From a virus, in the UHGV virus genome UHGV-1366948: a DNA stretch of 38,925 bases; one strand, written 5' to 3'. Of the stretch, positions 3,329-38,724 are shown one piece after another (within the stretch, counting starts at the first letter, position 1; each line of letters starts with the position of its first letter). Under the pieces are notes generated by a model, which saw nothing but the letters and a program-made list of their open reading frames with translations, was not told the DNA's origin and made no database searches. The position numbers and the translations under genes are program-made.

Positions 3329-3714
3329 TTGCGGCCCATCATTCGGTTCACATCATTGAGTCCCTTCATGGCCGTGATGACGGCCCGGGCGATGGGCTCA
3401 ACCTGTCGCGTGCGCGCGCACCACAGCGTCCATGCGTGCGGCGTCTTGCGCAGCAGCTCTCTGGCGAGGCTTTCGGCTGTCAGGGTGGCGATGTGATCAC
3501 GCAGGCTGCGCGAGCCGACCGCACCAAACCAGCGCGACCAGGCCGAGCCGTCGCATTCGACGATGATCTGGCCCATGCCGCCGAAGTCGCGCAGCAAGAC
3601 GGTGATGGGCGGAATGGTGGCCCGTCCCAGCAGGCCGTCGGCCTTGGCCTCATAGATACGCAGCGCCTCGATGTTCTCGATGGGCTCGATTTGCATCACC
3701 AGCTCCTCGGTCAT
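3319..3714 (-). CDS. Hypothetical phage protein (131 aa)
   Basis: ATGA start/stop overlap with the upstream RecT-like gene; high GC3. Confidence 0.5.
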   Translation of the reverse strand: MTEELVMQIEPIENIEALRIYEAKADGLLGRATIPPITVLLRDFGGMGQIIVECDGSAWSRWFGAVGSRSLRDHIATLTAESLARELLRKTPHAWTLWCARTRQVEPIARAVITAMKGLNDVNRMMGRKCL

Positions 3715-4631
3715 GACTGCGCCTCCTCGTTCAGTGCGGCGTTGAGCGCCAGGAAGTCAGCTGTGGTGATGCCATCGAGCGTGCCGCCTGCTGCCAGGCC
3801 CGCGCGCTGGCGCGCCTGGGCAATCGTGAGTCCGGCCTGGGCGATGCGTCGGGAGATCAACGCAACCTCACCGGCGGTGGCTGCTGTGGCCTTGCTGGTC
3901 CGTTTTCCGCCACGACGGGCCGGGGATGCCGCCTTGCCGGCTGCTGCAGGTGCTGCGGCAGCATCTGGCGCGGGCCGTGCCGCCACTGCGGTTGCAGCAG
4001 CAGACTTGCGTTGCGGCGGCGTCACCTTCGGCTTTTTGCCGGCAGCCGGCGCGGCTGGTGCCGGCGTGGTCATCGAAAGCCCGTCCAGCTCTTCGGCGGT
4101 GGGCGCGGTGCAGCTCTCAGGAAAACCACGACGCAGCGCCTGGGTCTCGGCGCGCGCTCCCAGCAGTGCGTAGGGGCGACGCGCCCACGCATCGTCCAGC
4201 GAGCCGTCAGCGAGCACGATGCGGTTCTCACGCCAGTATTCGCGCGCCGAGAACTCGGCCACCTCGCCGGTGTCCATGCGTCGCCGCACGGTGACGCGGC
4301 ACCAGGTCGGGAAGGTCACGGTCTGGCCGTTGATGACCTCGGTGGCCTCCGGTCCATACTCCGGCTCATCGATGCCAGCGCAGCCGTGGCGCATCGCCAG
4401 CATCCGATACAGGCCAGCGCGAGGGCGAATGATCCGTCGCGGGTCATCAGGGTCGGCCGGATTCGCTCGAGCCAGGTAGACGGGGTTCTGCAGCGCTGAC
4501 AGGCCCAGCGCGTTGCAGTAGTCGCGCACGGCGCGCACGGTGTCGCGGGACTCGCCCGGATAGATGGAAGTCTGCAGGATGTCGAGCAGAGCCTCGTCGT
4601 CAATATGGTCGGTGATTTCTGGTGTCGTCAT
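3711..4631 (-). CDS. Single-strand annealing protein, RecT/Redbeta-like (306 aa) with Ala/Pro/Lys-rich linker and short C-terminal domain
   Basis: N-terminal region SIYPGESRDTVRAVRDYCNALGLSALQNPVYL and W...AWARRPYALLGARAETQALRRGFPE resemble the RecT/Bet signature (W..HWEAMA.KT.IRRL.K.LP). Genomic context: followed by a nuclease and ssb. Confidence 0.5.
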   Translation of the reverse strand: MTTPEITDHIDDEALLDILQTSIYPGESRDTVRAVRDYCNALGLSALQNPVYLARANPADPDDPRRIIRPRAGLYRMLAMRHGCAGIDEPEYGPEATEVINGQTVTFPTWCRVTVRRRMDTGEVAEFSAREYWRENRIVLADGSLDDAWARRPYALLGARAETQALRRGFPESCTAPTAEELDGLSMTTPAPAAPAAGKKPKVTPPQRKSAAATAVAARPAPDAAAAPAAAGKAASPARRGGKRTSKATAATAGEVALISRRIAQAGLTIAQARQRAGLAAGGTLDGITTADFLALNAALNEEAQS

Positions 4632-4663
4632 GGTGCCGTCATGTTTAGCGTTGTAGACGGCAA

Positions 4664-4692
4664 AATATAGAACGGTAACTTTTTCGTGTAAA
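4664..4692 (-). promoter_or_regulatory. pL-like sigma70 promoter for the leftward early operon: TTTACA-N17-TATATT
   Basis: Seen directly on the minus strand about 35 nt upstream of the RecT-like start. Sits between the cI-operon terminator and the early operon, as in lambda pL. Confidence 0.5.
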
Positions 4693-4740
4693 GGATTAGC
4701 GAAACAGATTTAAGCCATTACTCGCCGCTGGCGTCTGCGC

Positions 4741-4764
4741 AACAAAAAGCCCGCTTTCGCGGGC
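4741..4764 (-). terminator. Rho-independent terminator of the cI (lysogenic) transcript
   Basis: Minus strand GCCCGC-GAAA-GCGGGC followed by TTTTTGTT, about 40 nt after the stop of the 4802..5260 gene. Confidence 0.6.
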
Positions 4765-4801
4765 TGCTGTGCGATATCGAAGGTGCTGGAGATGAACTAC
4801 A

Positions 4802-5260
4802 TCAGCGCCACGAGAAAACGGGGCATGTCGGCGCCGTCACAACGTGTTTGATGCTCCTACGCAACGTCTTTATAATCCCCCCCCCCCCCCCCCCCCCGCT
4901 GCGCGAATGGCTCTTTTCTGCAACGCGCTCGCGCAATACGCGGGCGGTCCTTTCTGCGATCTGCTGGGCCACACTGCGGCGGAGGGATGCCTGGTCGACG
5001 TGCTCGCAACCGACGCGCTCCGCTTCGCTGGTAATACAGGACTGCGCGTCTTCCGCGCGCGCCCAGGCAAGCTTCATGGCGTTGGCGACATCATCCAGCC
5101 TTCGGTAAGCGTCCGGGCCTTCGAGGTAGACCAGCGCCAGCTTCATGACTGAGGCAATTTCCGAGAAGGCCGCTTGCGCCAGGCCGTCCATCGCCTCGAT
5201 GGTGGCATGCAGGGTGGCGCATTCTTGGGGTGTTTCATCGGCTGCCTGTTGGTCGCTCAT
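4802..5260 (-). CDS. Lysogeny-expressed accessory gene downstream of cI (152 aa from ATG 5260; ORF extends to a TTG at 5395). Acidic, helical, C-terminus runs through the poly(G/C) tract (Gly7).
   Basis: Occupies the slot of lambda rexAB (between cI and oL/pL), followed by a terminator. AAGGAA/GAGGT lie upstream of ATG 5260. The tail after the homopolymer uses rare codons (ATA, AGG), suggesting frame-dependent C-terminus. Confidence 0.5.
   Translation of the reverse strand: MSDQQAADETPQECATLHATIEAMDGLAQAAFSEIASVMKLALVYLEGPDAYRRLDDVANAMKLAWARAEDAQSCITSEAERVGCEHVDQASLRRSVAQQIAERTARVLRERVAEKSHSRSGGGGGGGIIKTLRRSIKHVVTAPTCPVFSWR
4848..4875 (+). promoter_or_regulatory. Candidate plus-strand sigma70 promoter TTGATG-N16/17-TATAAT whose start site would fall inside the poly(C) tract
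   Basis: Perfect TATAAT immediately 5' of the C-tract with a TTGATG hexamer at the proper spacing. The transcript would be antisense to the cI-operon distal gene. Confidence 0.35.
4876..4897. repeat. Homopolymeric poly(C) tract of 21-22 nt (poly(G) on the coding minus strand)
   Basis: Directly visible. The printed sequence gives 22 C, the ORF track implies 21 plus one extra G upstream, so coordinates carry +/-1 uncertainty. Confidence 0.9.
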
Positions 5261-5391
5261 GCGCGTGTTTACCTCGGTTCCTTGCGAGTCGTAACGAAAC
5301 ATAACGGCGGAAAACCTGACACCCTGGCAATTGGTAGCACCAGCACGACAAAGACCGACGAACGGTAGATATGCCCGGATGAACGGTCGAT

Positions 5392-6057
5392 TCAAGCGGG
5401 CGGACGGCGGTACCTCCGATGTTCAATCACCGTCCCCAGAACCTCAACCGCTGATGCGTCGCCTTGAACCGTTGGGTAGTCGTCGTTGAGCGGCTTCAGC
5501 TCAATGAATGCTCGCCCGGTGTCATCAACCCCCCTAGGTCGATACTTGCGCAACACGGCCCCCTCCTCCCGACTGAGCGCCAGCACGTAATCGCCTGGCG
5601 CAGGCTCTACAGCTGGGTCAACGATGACCTGGTCCCCGGGTCGCAGCTCTGGCTGCATCGAGTTATCACGAATCTGCAGCGCAAAAGCCCGAGGAGACTG
5701 CGCCCCGGTGCTAAGCAGCCATTCGGGAGCACCTCCTGCGTCATAAGGGTCGCCGCTCCTCAGCCAATCGACGACCCTGGCTCGGTCAATGCACGGGATC
5801 TGGCGAATGTCCTCCATGCCTGGCCCCATGCCCATTTGTTCGCGCACCAGCTTGACCCCTTCGCCGGTCATCAACCAAGCGGCGCGCACGCCGGTAGCCC
5901 CTTCGATTTTGGCGGCGGTTTCGCCGCGCATGTGCTTTGTCCGTCCCGTAATCCAATGCGATATCGATGACGGGGTCACACCTATCTCGGCCGCCAGCTG
6001 CAGGCGGGTCTTGCCCGAGATCCTCAACGCCTCTTCAAGCCGGTCGCTCAAGTCCAT
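5392..6057 (-). CDS. CI-type prophage repressor: XRE-family HTH plus C-terminal S24 (LexA-like) autopeptidase domain
   Basis: HTH LQLAAEIGVTPSSISHWITG. S24 motifs QIRDNSMQPELRPGDQVIVD and AVLRKY (Ser/Lys dyad). GGGGAG sits 8 nt upstream of ATG 6057 (the ORF track start at 6102 is GTG). Confidence 0.85.
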   Translation of the reverse strand: MDLSDRLEEALRISGKTRLQLAAEIGVTPSSISHWITGRTKHMRGETAAKIEGATGVRAAWLMTGEGVKLVREQMGMGPGMEDIRQIPCIDRARVVDWLRSGDPYDAGGAPEWLLSTGAQSPRAFALQIRDNSMQPELRPGDQVIVDPAVEPAPGDYVLALSREEGAVLRKYRPRGVDDTGRAFIELKPLNDDYPTVQGDASAVEVLGTVIEHRRYRRPPA

Positions 6058-6204
6058 GCAGGAACTCCCCTGTTTATCGCGGAATTTTAGCGAACTCAAC
6101 ACAGGGCCGTGTCACAGAAGACACGATGTGTACTACATTGACCTTCACAAATTACTGTCTTATACAATGCTGCGGATTGAGGTAACGAACTATCGAGCAC
6201 TGGC
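6058..6204. promoter_or_regulatory. Divergent immunity-region promoters/operators. Candidate pR TTGACC(6138-6143)-N17-TATACA(6161-6166) or TACAAT. Leftward pRM-like TAAAAT near 6083-6088. ACAC-N-GTGT dyads at 6104-6150.
   Basis: Hexamers seen directly. Dyads ACACAGGGCCGTGT and ACACGATGTGT lie between the divergent cI and cro-like starts. Confidence 0.45.
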
Positions 6205-6543
6205 ATGAAGACAGCAAGAGCCGTGGAATTGGCGGGCGGGCGAGCACAGCTGGCCGGCCTCCTGGGAATTGGGCGAGCTGCCGTCCATCACTGGGGAGAA
6301 GACATCCCCGAAGGGCGCGCCTGGCAACTGCGCGTTCTCCGTCCCGAGTGGTTTCCGCAGGACGCCCCCGGCGGCGGGCAACCCATTGCGTCGGCGCCAG
6401 TCGGTCAGGTCCACCAGCCCCCCGATGCCGATACGCCGGCTGCGGAACTGACGGCCGCAGAACGCAAGGCGCGAGAACAGCAGGAAAAGCTGGCTCGCAT
6501 CATCCAGCTGGCCACAGAGATCGTGCAGGAGGCTGTGCAATGA
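6205..6543 (+). CDS. Cro-like / YdaS-type HTH regulator (112 aa)
   Basis: Divergent from cI. TARAVELAGGRAQLAGLLGIGRAAVHHWGE-IPEGRAWQLRVL resembles Cro/YdaS-family HTH. Confidence 0.55.
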   Translation: MKTARAVELAGGRAQLAGLLGIGRAAVHHWGEDIPEGRAWQLRVLRPEWFPQDAPGGGQPIASAPVGQVHQPPDADTPAAELTAAERKAREQQEKLARIIQLATEIVQEAVQ

Positions 6544-7746: not shown

Positions 7747-8044
7747 CTGGATCCCTGCGCCGCTTCCAGACCTCTCCAGTCAGGCAGGGGATGTTCACCT
7801 GGCGTTGCTGGATCTGCACTTCATCAACCGTCGTCCATTGCCATTGGACCGGAAGACGCTCCATCGCCTGCTCAACGTCCGAACCTACTACCAGGAGTGG
7901 CAGGTGGAGGCCGTACTGAACACCCATTTCAACAGAACGCCGCAGGGCTGGTTGCCCATGCTCGAACCAAAGCCACTGGATGCCCGGCCATGCACTACTT
8001 CTCCTTCCACATCCGCGACTACCGAAGCAAAACCGGGTACCTGA
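7727..8044 (+). CDS. Possible small ORF (105 aa) overlapping the initiator gene start
   Basis: ATG preceded by a G-rich stretch; overlaps the next gene by 54 nt. Confidence 0.2.
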   Translation: MTQIPRDWIPAPLPDLSSQAGDVHLALLDLHFINRRPLPLDRKTLHRLLNVRTYYQEWQVEAVLNTHFNRTPQGWLPMLEPKPLDARPCTTSPSTSATTEAKPGT

Positions 8045-8988
8045 CGCGCATGCAGAACCTTGCCTATCGGCTGCTGCTGGAAGAGTGCTACATGACCGAG
8101 CGGCCTCTGCCGTCAGATCCTGCTGAGTGCGCCCGCAAGATCGGCATGTCCGATTGCGTAGACGACGTGAGGCTGGTGCTGAATGACTTCTTCGAGCTGG
8201 GCGAGGACGGCTACAGGAATCGTCGCTGCGAGGAGGAGCTGAGCAACTGCATCGAGCGCCAGGAGAAAAAGCGCCGGGCCGGCATGGCGTCGGGCGAGGC
8301 GCGGCGCGCACGCGCCGAGCGCCTCAAGCAAGGCACGCAAAGCGATGTGCGCACCGGCACGGCATCGAGAAATGAACGGATGCTGAACACCCATCCGACA
8401 GATGATGAACAGCCGCTGAACATCTGTTCAACACGTGTTGAACTACCCAACACCCATTACCCATTACCCAAAACCCATCTAACCCCCCCTGTCCCCCCCT
8501 TGGGCGGCCTGGGGTCAGTGACGTCATTCGATGTCGATCCTGTTGCGGGGCCTGAAGGCGCGGTCAGCTCGGGCACAAGCCAGCAAAGCGCGGCGCTGCC
8601 CGATTCGGCCAGGCAGCGCCATGCGCGTGCACGTAGCGGTCCCGAGAGCTGGTCCGGCGTGCATGTCGAGCGACCCGGTGAGGTTTCGGTAGCGCTGTGG
8701 CGCGACTTCTGCGCGCTGCGAAAGGCCAAGCGCGCCCCGATCACCGAGGCTGCACTGGCAGGCATACGGCGCGAGGCCGGCAAGGCCGGGGTAACGCTCT
8801 CGGATGCGCTGGCGTTCATGGCTGAACGAGGGCACCAGGGCTTCATCGTCGATGCGTATCTGCGCCGCGACGGCCCATCGCCGTCCAGGCGAGGCGCGCC
8901 CGCCAGGTTGCAGCACACGCCGCACGGCGGCTTTTCGGAACTCGATTACCGTCAGGAGGTCAACGAGGATGGGACCCTCGCACAGTAG
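7990..8988 (+). CDS. Phage replication initiator / replisome organizer: N-terminal DUF1376 (YdaU-like) domain plus C-terminal helicase-loader-interaction-like domain (332 aa)
   Basis: N-terminus MHYFSFHIRDYRSKTGYLTRMQNLAYRLLLEECYMTERPLPSD matches the DUF1376 signature (MxYxxxHIxDY...Y.RLL..Y....PLP.D). Followed by a DnaC-like loader. Confidence 0.65.
   Translation: MHYFSFHIRDYRSKTGYLTRMQNLAYRLLLEECYMTERPLPSDPAECARKIGMSDCVDDVRLVLNDFFELGEDGYRNRRCEEELSNCIERQEKKRRAGMASGEARRARAERLKQGTQSDVRTGTASRNERMLNTHPTDDEQPLNICSTRVELPNTHYPLPKTHLTPPVPPLGGLGSVTSFDVDPVAGPEGAVSSGTSQQSAALPDSARQRHARARSGPESWSGVHVERPGEVSVALWRDFCALRKAKRAPITEAALAGIRREAGKAGVTLSDALAFMAERGHQGFIVDAYLRRDGPSPSRRGAPARLQHTPHGGFSELDYRQEVNEDGTLAQ
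8370..8510. repeat. Ori-like repeat island inside the initiator gene: TGAACA x3 plus its inverse TGTTCA, a perfect 16-bp palindrome TTCAACACGTGTTGAA, tandem CCCATTA CCCATTA CCC, then C7 and C8 runs
   Basis: All repeats seen directly. Local AT enrichment in an otherwise GC-rich coding sequence. By analogy to lambda, the ori iterons may lie within the O gene. Confidence 0.45.
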
Positions 8989-14735: not shown

Positions 14736-16001
14736 ATGGATCCACGTTCTGCCCTGGCCATCGAGCAGGTCTCGATAGACGACCTGATTCCCTACGCCCG
14801 CAACAGCCGCACCCATAGCGACGCACAGGTCGCGCAGATCGCGGCCAGCATCCGCGAATTTGGCTTCACGAACCCGGTTCTGATTGACGCGGGCGCCGGC
14901 ATCATCGCCGGGCACGGTCGCGTGCTGGCTGCGCGCAAGCTCGGTCTGCAGCAGGTGCCGGCCATCCGCATCGACTACATGACCGAGGCGCAAAAGCGCG
15001 CCTACGTGATCGCCGACAACAAGCTGGCGCTCAACGCCGGCTGGGACAATGAGCTGCTGGCGCTGGAACTGGGGGAGCTGGGTGACGCCGGTTTCGACCT
15101 TTCGCTGACGGGCTTCGACGACGACGAGCTGGCAGCGCTTCGCATCGGCATCGAGGGCGAAACCGAAGGGCTTACCGACGAGGATGAGGCGCCGGAAACC
15201 GAAGCGCGCACCGTCACCGTGCCCGGCGACGTGTGGGTGATGGGCGAGCACCGGCTGATCTGCGGTGACTCGACCCGGGTCGACGTATTACAAAATGTAA
15301 CAGGGGGGGGTAAAGTGGACCTTTTGCTGACCGACCCTCCGTACAACGTCGCCTATGAGGGCAAGACGCGGGACGCGCTCACGATCCAGAACGACGCGAT
15401 GGGTGACGAGCAGTTCCGTCAGTTCCTGCGCGATGCATTCACGGCCGCCGATACGGTGATGAAGCCGGGGGCCGTCTTCTACATCTGGCACGCGGACAGC
15501 GAGGGCTACAACTTCCGGGGTGCCGCACGCGATACGGGCTGGACGGTGCGCCAGTGCCTGATCTGGCGCAAGCAGTCGATGGTGATGGGGCGCCAGGACT
15601 ATCACTGGCGGCATGAGCCGTGTCTGTATGGCTGGAAGGATGGCGCTGGGCACCTGTGGGCGTCGGATCGCAAGCAGACGACGGTGCTGGAGTTCGATCG
15701 ACCGGCGCGCAATGCCGAGCACCCAACGATGAAACCAGTGGCGCTTTTCGAGTATCAGATGCTCAACAACACGAAAGGCAGCGATGTGGTGCTCGATATC
15801 TTTGGCGGAAGCGGCACAACGCTGATTGCCTGCGAAAAGCACGGCCGGTGCGCGCGCCTGGTAGAGCTGGATCCGAAGTACTGCGACGTGATCGTGCGGC
15901 GCTGGCAGGCGTTTACCGGGCGCGCCGCTGTGCTCGAAGGCAGCGGCCGCACGTTCGATGACATGGCCGCCGAGCACCTGCCTGCGGAGGCGCCTGCATG
16001 A
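14736..16001 (+). CDS. ParB-like nuclease domain fused to DNA N6-adenine/N4-cytosine methyltransferase (421 aa)
   Basis: N-terminus ParB/Srx-like (RNSRTHSDAQVAQIAASIREFGFTNPVLID...GHGRVLAARKLG). C-terminus MTase with DPPY motif (LLLTDPPYNVAY) and SAM-binding FGGSGTT. Confidence 0.85.
   Translation: MDPRSALAIEQVSIDDLIPYARNSRTHSDAQVAQIAASIREFGFTNPVLIDAGAGIIAGHGRVLAARKLGLQQVPAIRIDYMTEAQKRAYVIADNKLALNAGWDNELLALELGELGDAGFDLSLTGFDDDELAALRIGIEGETEGLTDEDEAPETEARTVTVPGDVWVMGEHRLICGDSTRVDVLQNVTGGGKVDLLLTDPPYNVAYEGKTRDALTIQNDAMGDEQFRQFLRDAFTAADTVMKPGAVFYIWHADSEGYNFRGAARDTGWTVRQCLIWRKQSMVMGRQDYHWRHEPCLYGWKDGAGHLWASDRKQTTVLEFDRPARNAEHPTMKPVALFEYQMLNNTKGSDVVLDIFGGSGTTLIACEKHGRCARLVELDPKYCDVIVRRWQAFTGRAAVLEGSGRTFDDMAAEHLPAEAPA
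15303..15310. repeat. G8 homopolymer in the ParB-MTase inter-domain linker, within an unusually AT-rich 30-nt patch (TTACAAAATGTAACAGGGGGGGGTAAAG)
   Basis: Directly visible; encodes TGGGK. Confidence 0.9.
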
Positions 16002-30522: not shown

Positions 30523-32970
30523 ATGATATCCAACAGCTCGGTGACGCTGGTAATCGGCGCCGCCATGTCGGCCACATTCCTGGGAACGACAGGGCGGGCC
30601 AAGTCCCATATCAATCGCCTGGGCGAAGACATTGCGCGCCTGCGACGCGAGCAGCGCGCGCTGACCGGCGGCCGCCTTTCTGGTGGCGGCCGAGGCGCAC
30701 TGGTCACCCAAGAGGTCGGTCAGCTGATGCAAAAGATCGATCAGCTGGAGGTCCGAAAACAGCGCCTGGAAAAGTCCTTCGAGAGGATGTCCAGCGGCAA
30801 GGAGATGATGGGCGGCGCCCTCAAGAGTATCGGTGCGATGTGGGCTGGAAGTCAGCTTTTTCTGAAGCCGATCCAGGCGGCCAGCGCCTTCGAGGACGCC
30901 ATGCTGGGGGTGGCCAAGCAGATGGATGGTGCTCGCGACGCTCAGGGAAATCTCACGCCAGAGTTCTTCCAGATGAGAGATGCCATCCAGGCAATGGGCC
31001 GGGAAATCCCAATGGCCACGAACGAGCTTGCCGAGATGACGGCGGCTGGCCTGCGCATGGGCGTTGCCAAGAACGAGGTGCTGGGCTTTGTCAGGACATC
31101 GGCGATGATGTCCACGGCCTTCGAGATGCCAGCGGGCGAGCTGGCCGAGCAGATGGGCAAGGTGGCAAAGATCTACGGCATCCCGACAGAGCGGATCGGC
31201 GACCTGGCCGATTCCATCAACTACCTCGACGACAACGCGATCTCCAAGGGGGGGGACATCATCAATGTGCTGCAGCGTATTGGCGGCACGGCCTCGATGC
31301 TGGGCATGTCGGCCAAGGATGCGGCGGCACTCGGTTCGACCTTCCTGACGCTGGGCGCTAGCGCCGAGGTGGCGGCCACGGCGTCGAATGCCGTAATGCG
31401 GGAACTATCGACGGCAGCATTACAGGGCGACAAGTTCACGAAGGCGCTCGGGGAGGAAGGGCTGAACCTGGGACTGACGCCCGAGGAACTTCAGAAGGCA
31501 ATGGCCATTGACGCTACCGGCACTATCATGATGGTGCTGCGATCGCTTAGCAACCTGCCCAAAGAAAAGCGCCTGACCATTGCCACACTGATGTTTGGCA
31601 AGGAGTATGGCGACGACGTTGCCAAGCTGGCTGGCGGGTATGATGAATACTATAAACAGTTTCGGCTTGCCAACAGCGCAGAGGCCAAGGGCAGCATGGC
31701 ACGCGAGGCCGCAGCCAGGGACAATACCGCTTCGGCCCAGTGGCAATTGCTGAAGAACCACATGAAGGAGGCGATGGTAACCATCGGCGACCAGCTGATG
31801 CCGGTGGCGCGCGAGTTCATGGGCAGCATGCGCGACGTTCTTGGCGATCTGACGGCATTTGCCAAGAATAACGGCGCGCTGTTGAAAGGCGCCTTCTGGC
31901 TGGCTTCTAGAATCGTGGTCGGTTTTGTGGCCGCGAAGACCGCCATGCTCGGACTGGGGGCAGCCCGCTACGTTATTGGGTCGGTCTCGTCCGGTCTCCT
32001 AATGGCCAAGGATAGTTTCACCCGAGTCACGGACGCATGGAATGCCGCTGACGCGAAAGCCAAGAGGAAAGGCGGCGCACTGATGGCGCTGCTGGCGACT
32101 GGCGCGTACATCGTTTATCGGAACTGGGGCTCGATCCTGCAATTTTTCCAGGAACGGTTCCCTGCGGTAGGACGATGGCTGGGCAAGCTGGGGGAGTGGT
32201 TTTCCGGGGCCGGCGATTCTGCGATGGAGATGGGGGGCACGGTGTTGATGGCCATGCCGCTGCTGTCTGCGCCGGCGAGCAAGCTGGGGGCCGTCGGGAA
32301 GAGCCTGCAAGCACTGGGCGGCAAGTTTGTAGCGCTGGGCAAGCTGGTGGCAGCGCACCCCTTGCTGCTCGCCGTAGGTCTGCTCGCCACGGCTGCGTTC
32401 CTGGTCTACAAGAACTGGGAGCCAATCAAGACATTCTTCGGCGACCTGTGGGACGGCATCAGCCAGAAGATAGGCGACACCATTGATTGGATGAAGGAAA
32501 CCTTCGGGAGGTTCCGCGACTGGATGGCGCCATGGGTGGATGATGCGGTGTCAGTTCTCGGCCTGCTGCGCGACGGCGTAGGCAAGGTCTTTGACTGGAT
32601 CGGCGAGAAGATTGGCAAGATCATGGAAGACATCCAGAAGGCATCGGCCTGGGTTGAAGAAAAGACGGCGCCCGCCAAGGATGCCTACTGGTCTTTGCGA
32701 ACGGGCCTGAGCGATGGCATTGAACGGCTGGCGAATCTGGCGTCCGGCACAGAGCCCGTCCGAGCTGACGCGCCCGTTCTGCCTGCGCGGACGCTGCCAT
32801 CGGTAACGGCGCGCGCGCAGGCCGCCCAGCAGAATACCGTGACGATCAACGTCAACCAGCTGCCGGGAGAGAGCGGAGAGGCTCTCGCCCAGAGGATCGC
32901 GCAGGCCCAGGCGCGCGCGCTCGCTGTACGCAACCGAGGGGGGCTTTATGACCATGCGATCGCTTATTGA
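30523..32970 (+). CDS. gpT: Tail tape measure protein (815 aa)
   Basis: Long alpha-helical protein with hydrophobic central segments, directly after E/E' in the P2-type order. Confidence 0.85.
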   Translation: MISNSSVTLVIGAAMSATFLGTTGRAKSHINRLGEDIARLRREQRALTGGRLSGGGRGALVTQEVGQLMQKIDQLEVRKQRLEKSFERMSSGKEMMGGALKSIGAMWAGSQLFLKPIQAASAFEDAMLGVAKQMDGARDAQGNLTPEFFQMRDAIQAMGREIPMATNELAEMTAAGLRMGVAKNEVLGFVRTSAMMSTAFEMPAGELAEQMGKVAKIYGIPTERIGDLADSINYLDDNAISKGGDIINVLQRIGGTASMLGMSAKDAAALGSTFLTLGASAEVAATASNAVMRELSTAALQGDKFTKALGEEGLNLGLTPEELQKAMAIDATGTIMMVLRSLSNLPKEKRLTIATLMFGKEYGDDVAKLAGGYDEYYKQFRLANSAEAKGSMAREAAARDNTASAQWQLLKNHMKEAMVTIGDQLMPVAREFMGSMRDVLGDLTAFAKNNGALLKGAFWLASRIVVGFVAAKTAMLGLGAARYVIGSVSSGLLMAKDSFTRVTDAWNAADAKAKRKGGALMALLATGAYIVYRNWGSILQFFQERFPAVGRWLGKLGEWFSGAGDSAMEMGGTVLMAMPLLSAPASKLGAVGKSLQALGGKFVALGKLVAAHPLLLAVGLLATAAFLVYKNWEPIKTFFGDLWDGISQKIGDTIDWMKETFGRFRDWMAPWVDDAVSVLGLLRDGVGKVFDWIGEKIGKIMEDIQKASAWVEEKTAPAKDAYWSLRTGLSDGIERLANLASGTEPVRADAPVLPARTLPSVTARAQAAQQNTVTINVNQLPGESGEALAQRIAQAQARALAVRNRGGLYDHAIAY

Positions 32971-37033: not shown

Positions 37034-37768
37034 CTATATCTCGCGCGCAGGGCTGCCAATAAATACAACGGCCGCCTCTTCCAATTGGCGCGCATCAGCG
37101 GCCAGGTTTTCCGCGACAACTCCGGCCGAGGCGCCTCCCTTGTTCCCTGGCTCTCGGGTATCCAGCAGGCGCTGCCTGATGAGCTGCAGCTGCTGGTACA
37201 GGTCATCCAGGTAGCGATCTCGGAGGTAGTGCCGCACATCATGGTCCGGCGATTGAGGGATGCCAGCGATCTCAAACACCCCCTCAATCAAGAGGCGGTA
37301 GCGCCCGGCCCCTGATATCGTCGTATGCAGCCCGGTCCGCGCCGCTGCCAGCGTCGTCGAGGAGATGAGCTGGAGCCGCAAGATCCGTTCTTCGCTGATG
37401 GGACGCCCTCGCGTTGGCGCGAGGTTGCGCGCGCTCCGGGATGCTGCATCCACCAGGGCGTGCCCGGGCTCAGACGCCAGATCCTGGAGCGCCCCCAGGG
37501 TGCTTGGCGCAAGCTGATCACTCGCTGCGGACTGGCCCAGGAAGCCAGTCCAGGCCGCCCCGCCCTCCGAGGCGATCCGGACGAGCGTCTGTAGCGCCTG
37601 ATGAAGCGCTTCGGCATCCCTGTTTTTGCCGCCGCGCGCCGGGCTGCGCAGGCGCATGGCGGCCCGCGCCTCCTGGTAGCGCCGCACAGCGGCCTCGATC
37701 TCTTGCATGGCGCGCTGACTGCCTTGCAGCAGGCGCAACAGTGTCGCGCGTTGCGCCTGAGCGGCCAT
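37034..37768 (-). CDS. Hypothetical protein (244 aa) translationally coupled to the integrase (TGATG overlap)
   Basis: ATG at 37768 overlaps the int stop. High GC3. No recognisable motif. Confidence 0.4.
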   Translation of the reverse strand: MAAQAQRATLLRLLQGSQRAMQEIEAAVRRYQEARAAMRLRSPARGGKNRDAEALHQALQTLVRIASEGGAAWTGFLGQSAASDQLAPSTLGALQDLASEPGHALVDAASRSARNLAPTRGRPISEERILRLQLISSTTLAAARTGLHTTISGAGRYRLLIEGVFEIAGIPQSPDHDVRHYLRDRYLDDLYQQLQLIRQRLLDTREPGNKGGASAGVVAENLAADARQLEEAAVVFIGSPAREI

Positions 37769-38724
37769 CACGCCGCCTTGTCGCCAAAGACCTTGGCGAG
37801 CATGGCTTCCCTGGTATCCACGCACAGGTGCGCGTACCTCTGGGTCATGGCCAGGCTCTTGTGGCCCAGGCTATCTGCAATGGCCAAGAGGGGCTGTCCT
37901 TGCCTGGCCAGCCAGCTGGCATGGGTGTGCCGAAGCGTATGGAAGACGGCGCCTTCGATGCCGGCGCGCTCCAGGGCGTTGTAGTACGCCTTCTCGATGT
38001 TCATCGGCTTCCCCGGCGAGCGACCGCAGAACACCAGGTCATCGTCCCTGGCTCCTCGCCGCAGGGACTTCAGCTCATCTGCGACATCCCCTTGCAGGAC
38101 GAGCACGAAGGGCTCGCCGTTTTTCGTGCGCTCGACAAACGCGCGCCGGGCGCCCAGGTCCAGATCCTTCCAGCGCAGCCCCAGTAACGTGCCCTTGCGT
38201 GCGCCGGTGGTCACCGCCAGCTTGATGAGGACATGCAGCTTCTTCCAGTACGAGACCTTGGCCGACGCAAGCAGGCGCTGATACTCATCAGAGGAAAGGA
38301 ACCTGACCCGGCTGTTATCGACCGGGAGCAGCTCGGTTTCGCGCACCGGGTTGAGCCAGCCTTTCGGCATGAGGCGGCGCTTTTGTGCCCACGTCAGCAC
38401 GGCCTGGATGGTCGAGCGGTACCGGTTGATGGTGGCTGGTGCCAACGGGCGCCCGGTGCTGACGATGCTGACGCCTTCGCGGGTGGCGCCTCCTCGGTTC
38501 AGGAGGCAGCCGCGCATCCGGAGGGCTTCCAGGGCGTCCTGGATGTCGTCGCCGTCGATCTCGGCAGCGACCTTGCCTCCCAGCTGCTCGACAAAGAAAG
38601 CGAGGCGCTGACCCTGGCCAACATTGTTCTTTCGGTAGCAGGCCATGTAGACGTCAGCCAGCTCTTTGAGGGTGAAACGTTGCTCCCTAGTCAGGGGGGC
38701 AGAAACAGCGTTTTCGAGTGTCAT
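37768..38724 (-). CDS. int: Tyrosine integrase (phage integrase family)
   Basis: Catalytic motifs R...HTLRHTHAS...LGHKSLAMTQRYAHL (R-H-R-Y). Confidence 0.9.
   Translation of the reverse strand: MTLENAVSAPLTREQRFTLKELADVYMACYRKNNVGQGQRLAFFVEQLGGKVAAEIDGDDIQDALEALRMRGCLLNRGGATREGVSIVSTGRPLAPATINRYRSTIQAVLTWAQKRRLMPKGWLNPVRETELLPVDNSRVRFLSSDEYQRLLASAKVSYWKKLHVLIKLAVTTGARKGTLLGLRWKDLDLGARRAFVERTKNGEPFVLVLQGDVADELKSLRRGARDDDLVFCGRSPGKPMNIEKAYYNALERAGIEGAVFHTLRHTHASWLARQGQPLLAIADSLGHKSLAMTQRYAHLCVDTREAMLAKVFGDKAA

Follow-up and report, generated by a model that had tools for sequence, protein, structure and literature searches.

Genes and features around the tract

The DNA analysed here is a stretch of 38,925 nt from a viral genome (UHGV-1366948), which we call the window throughout. 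Between a repressor gene and an early-left operon, it holds a short gene, orf152, near the 3' end of which lies a run of 21 identical bases. The features that define this region, with their positions in the window, are as follows:

3711-4631: single-strand annealing protein gene, following the pL-like promoter
4664-4692, minus strand: pL-like promoter, TTTACA-N17-TATATT, of the early-left (recombination) operon
4740-4765, minus strand: intrinsic-terminator-like hairpin, AGCCCGCGAAAGCGGGCT + TTTTTGTTG (hairpin 4765-4748 plus a T run)
4802-5260, minus strand: orf152 gene, 152 aa from an ATG with GAGG 11 nt upstream
4877-4897: poly-C tract, C21 on the plus strand and G21 on the gene strand, encoding Gly122-128 (Gly7) of orf152
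5392-6102, minus strand: cI-type repressor gene (HTH and peptidase S24), probably starting at ATG 6057 (221 aa)
6205-6543, plus strand: P22-Cro-like regulator gene, divergent from cI
37768-38724: integrase-like ORF

The orf152 gene lies on the same strand as cI, and because the gap of 131 nt between them contains no predicted terminator or promoter, we infer that the two genes are co-transcribed; the terminator-like hairpin downstream would, judging from its sequence, end the cI-orf152 transcript. By position, following the S24/HTH repressor gene at 131 nt on the same strand, the tract-bearing gene is thus the cI-downstream accessory gene that it had been taken for in the original prediction. 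Beyond the hairpin, the pL-like promoter stands back-to-back with a promoter-like site on the plus strand next to the tract, and exonuclease-like genes and SSB lie beyond the single-strand annealing protein gene.

The same prophage was found in a 774-kb scaffold, where a flanking host gene matches metagenome-assembled genomes of Lautropia at 99% and 91% identity. On the strength of this host gene, the element is a prophage of Lautropia, one of the Burkholderiales and an inhabitant of the human mouth. Megablast against GenBank phages left the locus without any match, and the first 25 kb matched only a capsid fragment. One exact match to the flank was found in the JGI metagenome collection, and no relatives of orf152 were confirmed in GTDB representative genomes or IMG/VR.

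The homopolymer and its length in related prophages

The tract of 21 nt compares with a second-longest homopolymer length of only 8 nt in the whole window, as in the G8 runs at 15303-15310 and 31248-31255, and at base frequencies of 0.32 for C and 0.34 for G, about 7e-6 runs of at least 21 G's or C's would be expected per 38.9 kb. The claim that the poly(C) tract is real and far beyond chance is therefore upheld, and of the proposed lengths, C21-22, it is C21 that the window contains, while C22 has to be dropped. No other long homopolymers were seen in about 50 kb of Lautropia host sequence, and a search of IMG/VR for the motif of TATAAT followed by C12 returned a single, unrelated AT-rich contig.

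At 90% identity, orf152 falls into a single cluster of 56 members in an index of 5.8 billion proteins. The DNA of these members, together with loci in other neighbourhoods that were pulled out using the exact cI protein as a handle, gave 27 informative loci, in which the tract measured 11, 12, 13, 14, 15, 16 or 21 nt. The alleles were distributed as follows:

11 nt: L043 (311x coverage)
12 nt: L033, L034, L042, L046
13 nt: L001/L013, L002-L005, L047, L048
14 nt: L010, L011, L044
15 nt: L008, L009, L012
16 nt: L037
21 nt: the window, L045
Compound allele G3-A-G7-ATTA-G12, dubious: L035, L036

Coverage is 311x for the contig with G11 and 32x for a 382-kb contig with G12, and the contigs of L049-L051 stop within the tract after 15 G's. 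L035 was also considered as a locus with a different repressor, which was rejected: it carries the same cI, 97% identical and broken by a scaffold gap.

When ten loci were aligned, the flanks were about 99% identical and the tract was by far the most variable site. Haplotypes identical at every SNP still differed in the tract (21/15/16 in one group and 13/12 in another), the cI protein is identical in L042-L051 despite the differences in tract length, and near-identical prophage copies from different people also differ in length. The loci come from many sample accessions, among them ERR10228882, SRR16100486, SRR17284142, ERR15966895, SRR30750965, ERR8178796, and SRR19961925, and some accessions may be re-assemblies of one read set. 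Illumina or assembly error may account for part of the +/-1 nt differences, above all at low coverage. Among the complete loci, frame 0 was found in about 9-11, frame 1 in 8, and frame 2 in 4, and the C-termini of the listed cluster members accordingly read SRS-Gly(4, 5 or 7)-IIKTLRRSIKHV, Gly(4 or 5)-DYKDVA, or Gly5-L. The comparison of related prophages thus gave what had been anticipated, namely a variable tract, and because the lengths are non-uniform and all three frames are present, the tract is a hypermutable site. The shortest tract among the complete sampled copies is 11 nt, and none of these copies has a tract interrupted by substitutions, except for the one dubious compound allele.

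The exact length of 21 is less certain than the presence of the tract. It occurs in two independent assemblies (the window and L045), and common de Bruijn assemblers such as SPAdes and MEGAHIT use k values from 21 upwards, so that a longer run would collapse to 21 there; in our view, the value may thus be a collapsed lower bound. L045 has G-type errors just after the tract, and the contigs of L003, L012, and L049-L051 end in or beside it. L006/L007 were considered as a tract-less allele and rejected, because a Bacteroidota-type topoisomerase III fragment is joined exactly at the tract boundary, which makes these contigs chimeric. The doubt is limited to the exact length and does not extend to the existence of the tract. 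What the lambda-like prophage contains is a genuine G/C homopolymer of the slipped-strand (contingency) type, and we are highly confident that it is real and naturally polymorphic in the Lautropia element.

The C-terminal tail and the promoter-like site

The tract separates the conserved part of orf152 from a short 3' extension, in which the frame-0 tail on the minus strand and a promoter-like site on the plus strand overlap:

4802-4876, minus strand: frame-0 tail of 24 aa and a stop codon, in use only at tract lengths of 3n
4831-4871, plus strand: imperfect direct repeat, GCGCCGTCACAACGTGTTT / GCTCCTACGCAACGTCTTT, with a period of 22, overlapping the -35 and the spacer
4848-4876, plus strand: sigma-70-like TTGATG-N17-TATAAT, a 10/12 consensus match, antisense to orf152 and cI
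4857-4859, minus strand: alternative stop TAG, used when the tract length is 3n+1
4870-4872, minus strand: alternative stop TAA, used when the tract length is 3n+2
4898-5260, minus strand: orf152 body, residues 1-121, containing the three-helix core conserved in an uncharacterised family of phage-associated proteins
4926-4946, plus strand: weak terminator-like hairpin, about 45-65 nt past the predicted start

When 1.84 billion representatives were searched exhaustively with HMMER, 393 homologues of orf152 were obtained at E <=1e-3, which identifies the minus-strand protein as the real gene, and the plus-strand ORF at 4844-5152 was rejected as a true gene. The homologues are mostly 100-130 aa long, and only residues ~5-105 of orf152 can be aligned with them; the conserved columns of the alignment stop near residue 98, and the tails past that point are variable. 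Among the distant homologues, 149 were retrieved, and in these there was no run of Gly, Pro, Lys, or Phe. AlphaFold, when given the homologue alignment, predicted helices at residues 11-47, 51-82, and 90-119, with a pLDDT above 90 for residues 11-119, and scored residues 121-152 (the Gly run at 122-128 and the tail at 129-152) as disordered, with a pLDDT of 44-61. Because the tract is located after this conserved and confidently folded core, every frame keeps the core whole.

A change of tract length leads to a tail of 24 aa, of 6 aa (DYKDVA), or of 1 aa (a Leu preceded by an additional Gly, encoded by GGA). All three C-termini were seen in natural copies, which confirms that the tract sets the C-terminal frame; the tails had been given as 25, 6, or 1 residues, of which the two shorter ones are right and the longest has 24. 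The idea that the tract is an on/off control of the gene does not survive, since only a disordered appendage beyond the core is altered and the core is intact in all frames. The same is true of the proposed role as a lysogenic conversion or exclusion gene, because no Pfam, PHROG, PADLOC, NCBIfam, PDB profile, or Foldseek-PDB match was found for orf152, and its homologues in other elements adjoin ant/bet or integrase/replication genes and not cI.

The tail differs from the body in composition. The body has a gene-like GC1/2/3 of 0.69/0.48/0.74, whereas the 75-nt tail has 0.36/0.56/0.68 (overall GC 0.53), which is not gene-like, and it uses rare codons. All four SNPs in the tail are non-synonymous in frame 0, and the SNP density of the tail (4/75) matches that of the downstream intergenic DNA (11/170; 6/363 in the body). 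With its non-synonymous SNPs, intergenic-like SNP density, and GC1 of 0.36, the frame-0 tail does not look like coding DNA and appears to show no sign of selection as a peptide.

On the plus strand, the same DNA contains TTGATG at 4848-4853 and a perfect -10 hexamer, TATAAT, at 4871-4876, with the first C of the tract as the next nucleotide; the start predicted from the position of the -10 lies at about 4883, within the tract. A site of the form TTGATG-N16/17-TATAAT had been proposed immediately 5' of the tract, and such a site is indeed present and statistically unusual, with a spacer of 17 and not 16. Only two sites matching at least 10/12 were found on either strand of the whole window, the second being the pL-like promoter, and shuffles gave 0.5. 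When the tail alone was shuffled in a post hoc test (75 nt, local composition kept), such a site appeared anywhere in 0.4% of the trials and abutted the tract with a frequency of 4.5e-5. There are no SNPs in 4848-4876 in any clean relative, compared with 4 in the adjacent 46 nt. This would be weak support at best for the putative promoter. The relatives are all at least 94% identical, so that both the promoter conservation and the persistence of the tract may just reflect recent common ancestry. The plus-strand spacer is fixed at 17 nt, and as the tract follows the -10, its length has no effect on the spacing of the hexamers.

The imperfect direct repeat at 4831-4871 consists of two copies that are 74% identical, and it could be due to chance.

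Neither a significant RNA structure nor a significant terminator nor an Rfam family was found at the locus in support of an antisense RNA. The putative antisense RNA folds no better than shuffled sequences (z-score -1.0), nor does the 3' region of the mRNA, and there was no Rfam family by gathering thresholds or by E-value. The weak hairpin at 4926-4946 could bound a short antisense RNA, but such sites are not enriched over shuffles. The only candidate downstream of the predicted start is an ORF of 81 codons from ATG 4908, in antisense register and inside the 102-aa plus-strand ORF at 4844-5152, which lacks a Shine-Dalgarno sequence; there is thus no plausible downstream sense gene. In a search for shared cI operators, the comparison of oR with the promoter-tract region gave only chance-level matches.

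Possible roles of the tract and comparison with known systems

The explanation that we favour, tentatively and at less than even confidence, is that the locus varies as a contingency tract by strand slippage and that any role for which it is selected concerns the antisense promoter. We place this promoter context before tail isoforms and a neutral hotspot because the juxtaposition of promoter and tract is very unlikely to arise by chance and the tail looks unselected. Changes of tract length move the end of orf152 among the C-termini of 24, 6, or 1 residues, and according to this explanation the protein would be made in all phases, with the tail changes being largely a by-product, since the tract lies after the core, is absent from the homologues, and is followed by a tail that does not look selected. 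The tract would at the same time serve as discriminator and supply about the first 15 nt of the transcript of a near-consensus antisense promoter, which would fire into the 3' end of the cI-orf152 operon, through orf152 and cI. The G:C block right after the -10 should hinder promoter melting and escape, initiation would be forced to use CTP, and RNA slippage with reiterative synthesis would be possible. These expectations of difficult opening and escape and of reiterative synthesis follow from what is established about promoter melting, start-nucleotide preference, and RNA slippage. The length of the tract may in this way tune the antisense or convergent transcription that reaches the immunity operon, stochastically between cells. 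What speaks against the promoter context is that the putative plus-strand promoter is a consensus match alone, and we know of no established mechanism that ties a length of 11 versus 21 to promoter output.

The leading alternative, possible but rather unlikely in our judgement, is a neutral mutational hotspot, in which a recent homopolymer drifts in a dispensable 3' extension and the promoter match is a coincidence of the AT-rich gene end. It would agree with the restriction of the tract to one recent lineage (one 90% cluster of 56 members, and no run in the homologues), with the fact that no frame is excluded, and with the low local GC of 0.45-0.53, which raises the number of promoter-like matches. 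Even at this local composition, however, a match of at least 10/12 anywhere in the tail, let alone abutting the tract, is as rare as the tail-only shuffles above indicate. The dynamics of simple sequence repeats also lead one to expect that unselected long G/C runs contract or decay, whereas no complete sampled copy is shorter than 11 nt, and none bar the dubious compound allele is interrupted by substitutions.

We regard it as unlikely that the selected function is a switching between C-terminal isoforms, in which a long basic/hydrophobic tail, IIKTLRRSIKHVVTAPTCPVFSWR, alternates with two short tails and so alters localisation, stability, or partner binding. The presence of all three frames in natural copies and the frame-0 ORF staying open for 24 codons are in keeping with such a function, and frame mixtures among isolates are typical of phase-variable genes. 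Nevertheless, the tail is outside the conserved folded core, its SNPs and its GC1 and codon usage are those described above for DNA that does not look coding, and a near-consensus promoter occupies its sequence on the other strand. In addition, slippage of RNA polymerase or the ribosome on G21 would probably blur the frames, judging from what is established about transcriptional slippage.

Returning to the antisense promoter, we consider a stronger version of its role quite doubtful: a dual-use stochastic switch, in which tract length would set the escape of the backward-facing promoter, so that lysogens inherit different levels of antisense or convergent transcription against the repressor operon, and with them different rates of spontaneous induction or different immunity strength, as bet-hedging for the lysis-lysogeny decision.

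A spacer switch on the sense strand, of the type known from Bordetella fim and Neisseria porA, is very unlikely. Here, minus-strand TTCGCG-(6+n)-TATAAA would become a promoter at n = 10-12 and would give an RNA that either stops after about 115 nt, at the 4748-4765 terminator, or continues into the early-left operon. The commonest lengths of 11-13 would indeed correspond to spacers of 17-19 nt, a terminator lies about 100 nt downstream, and Bordetella fim promoters work in this way with C13-C22 tracts (PMC1891110). By contrast, the hexamers are poor (8/12 in total, with 3/6 for TTCGCG and a TATAAA without the conserved final T), the site was not reported by the promoter scan, the putative RNA has no Rfam match or significant fold, and the frequent lengths of 14-21 would abolish the promoter. 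Finally, it is extremely unlikely that the tract is a sequencing or assembly artefact (poly-G of two-colour chemistry or de Bruijn collapse), for although the contig breaks in or beside it, the contig pair chimeric exactly at it, the G-type errors in L045, and the length equal to a common smallest k would all suit this explanation, more than 20 assemblies, made by different projects with different assemblers and including contigs at 311x and 32x, place the tract inside the contig between identical unique flanking sequences, and spurious poly-G falls at the ends of reads or contigs rather than repeatedly at a single interior position.

Hypermutable repeats are a classic route of diversification in mucosal bacteria, and their use by phages is only just being described (2025 T2/T4 preprint). 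The present locus is a natural, population-level case in a temperate phage of a common oral commensal, with a tract that is unusually long and polymorphic between people. If the antisense promoter were active and its output depended on tract length, prophage immunity or induction would be tuned by a simple repeat. This would be new, and only under these conditions would the fusion to the -10 be a new variant. Otherwise, the tract would still be useful as a marker of microevolution within the prophage lineage and as a caution for assemblers, given the broken, collapsed, and chimeric contigs that occur at it, and the locus would draw attention to some 390 small phage proteins that form an uncharacterised family.

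Among known systems, the closest in sequence type are the homopolymeric tracts of Bordetella, which underlie phase variation of the fim2, fim3, and fimX promoters and of bvgS, tcfA, and bapC; these C/G tracts measure 13-22 nt in promoters and up to 17 in coding regions, and prophage tracts were left out of that study (Gogol et al. 2007, PMC1891110). The Lautropia tract resembles them in being a C/G tract of similar length, polymorphic among near-identical genomes and subject to slipped-strand mispairing, and its host belongs to the same order, the Burkholderiales. It differs in that the fim tracts lie between the activator or -35 site and the -10 and set the spacing, whereas the Lautropia tract lies past the -10 of the only good promoter; and unlike in bvgS and tcfA, where the frameshift truncates the protein, only a disordered tail beyond the core is affected here. 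In phages, A-runs of T2 and T4 have been presented as contingency loci (Gomez, Barrick and Waters 2025, bioRxiv 10.1101/2025.10.21.683753), and polyG tracts were noted or shown in Fletchervirus receptor-binding proteins, in the BPP-1 methylase, and in PB1-like phages (bioRxiv 10.1101/2025.10.21.683753). As in those cases, a hypermutable homopolymer in a phage genome leads to heterogeneous progeny or lysogens. Those runs, however, are 6-11 nt long, lie within essential coding parts, cause loss or gain of function, and come mostly from lytic phages, whereas the Lautropia tract ranges from 11 to at least 21 nt, and lies in a temperate immunity region, where it occupies the very 3' end of an accessory gene, directly against a promoter-like site.

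The position of the tract next to the -10 also recalls promoters with reiterative transcription, such as pyrBI, codBA, and upp of E. coli and pyrG of B. subtilis, in which runs of 3-8 nt control a downstream sense gene in a manner linked to nucleotide pools. The likeness is that the homopolymer would lie at or just before the predicted start, directly after the -10; the differences are that the run is 11-21 nt long here and that the putative transcript is antisense. Antisense and convergent promoters are well known from phage immunity, for example lambda OOP against cII, P22 sar, and the face-to-face pR and pL of coliphage 186, and the predicted promoter likewise faces a temperate regulatory operon, where antisense pairing or interference would be possible. 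To our knowledge, none of these carries a hypermutable tract, and we know of no described counterpart of an antisense promoter at the 3' end of a cI operon. In its position just downstream of cI on the same strand, followed by a terminator-like hairpin and a pL-like promoter, orf152 occupies the slot of lambda rexAB and P22 sieB, but neither sequence nor profile nor fold comparisons relate it to Rex, SieB, or any PADLOC defence protein. The locus thus joins the known homopolymeric contingency loci of phages and bacteria, among which it is unusual because its tract is long, lies in the immunity region of a temperate phage and beyond the part that encodes the protein core, and is fused to a -10 hexamer.

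Assembly behaviour at the C21 tract

In the short metagenomic contigs L006 (2173-2316) and L007, a Lautropia phage gene is fused to a fragment of a Bacteroidota-type DNA topoisomerase III, and the junction is identical in both, coinciding precisely with the base where the tract begins. This join was rejected as genuine sequence, and given its Bacteroidota-type fragment it is almost certainly a chimeric assembly. The contigs L003, L012 and L049-L051 terminate at or in the tract; taken together with the chimeric join, this means that the tract breaks or misjoins assemblies.

The related loci L035 (1905-1932) and L036 (600-627) carry a compound tract allele, GGGAGGGGGGGATTAGGGGGGGGGGGG followed by ATTATAAAG, in which the tract appears to have been duplicated along with its ATTA boundary. 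The allele could be an artefact of assembly or a tandem duplication that really exists, and L035 also has an N gap within cI.

Promoter pair and candidate regulatory sites

Two near-consensus sigma-70-like promoters, the only ones in the prophage, stand back-to-back about 155 nt apart (4664-4876) and flank the immunity-operon terminator. The following repeats were found in and around the immunity region:

4635-4661, perfect inverted repeat GCCGTC-N15-GACGGC, after the -10 of the pL-like promoter and before the annealing-protein gene starts
4670-4677, 5360-5367 and 5381-5388, all minus strand, exact octamer TACCGTTC, and GACCGTTC
6108-6125, perfect 18-bp palindrome CGTGTCACAGAAGACACG, cI-cro intergenic region

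The inverted repeat could serve as an operator or form a 5'-UTR hairpin. Exact copies of TACCGTTC number only two in the window, one within the pL-like promoter's spacer and one in the cI-orf152 gap, and GACCGTTC is located 21 nt away from the latter; these sites could be half-sites for a regulator. The palindrome is a candidate operator, and a search near pL and the tract gave no convincing second copy.

The orf152 protein family

The product of orf152 (4802-5260, minus strand) is one of about 390 small proteins, most of them 100-130 aa long, that make up an unannotated family; the family had no match in Pfam, PHROGs, PADLOC, NCBIfam or PDB. In the alignment of homologues (A1), the family shares the conserved motif ...GFSEIAAIAkLAL..LEtPeGy... 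and a near-invariant Cys, and its core is confidently predicted to consist of three helices. Both viral-contig homologues with readable neighbours (n = 2) are adjoined by phage or integrative-element genes, namely ant/bet and integrase/replication.

Possible replication origin and attachment site

A DUF1376 replication-type gene (7897-8988) contains an array and runs (8444-8499) as follows:

8444-8478, heptamer array, TACCCAT x5
8483-8489 and 8493-8499, two C7 runs after the array

The array region may represent origin iterons. By eye, the left end (1-60) reads as the reverse complement of the 3' part of a tRNA (T-arm, acceptor and CCA); ARAGORN and Rfam made no tRNA call at 1-60. Such a tRNA-like end would be in keeping with an attachment site at the end opposite the integrase (37768-38724).
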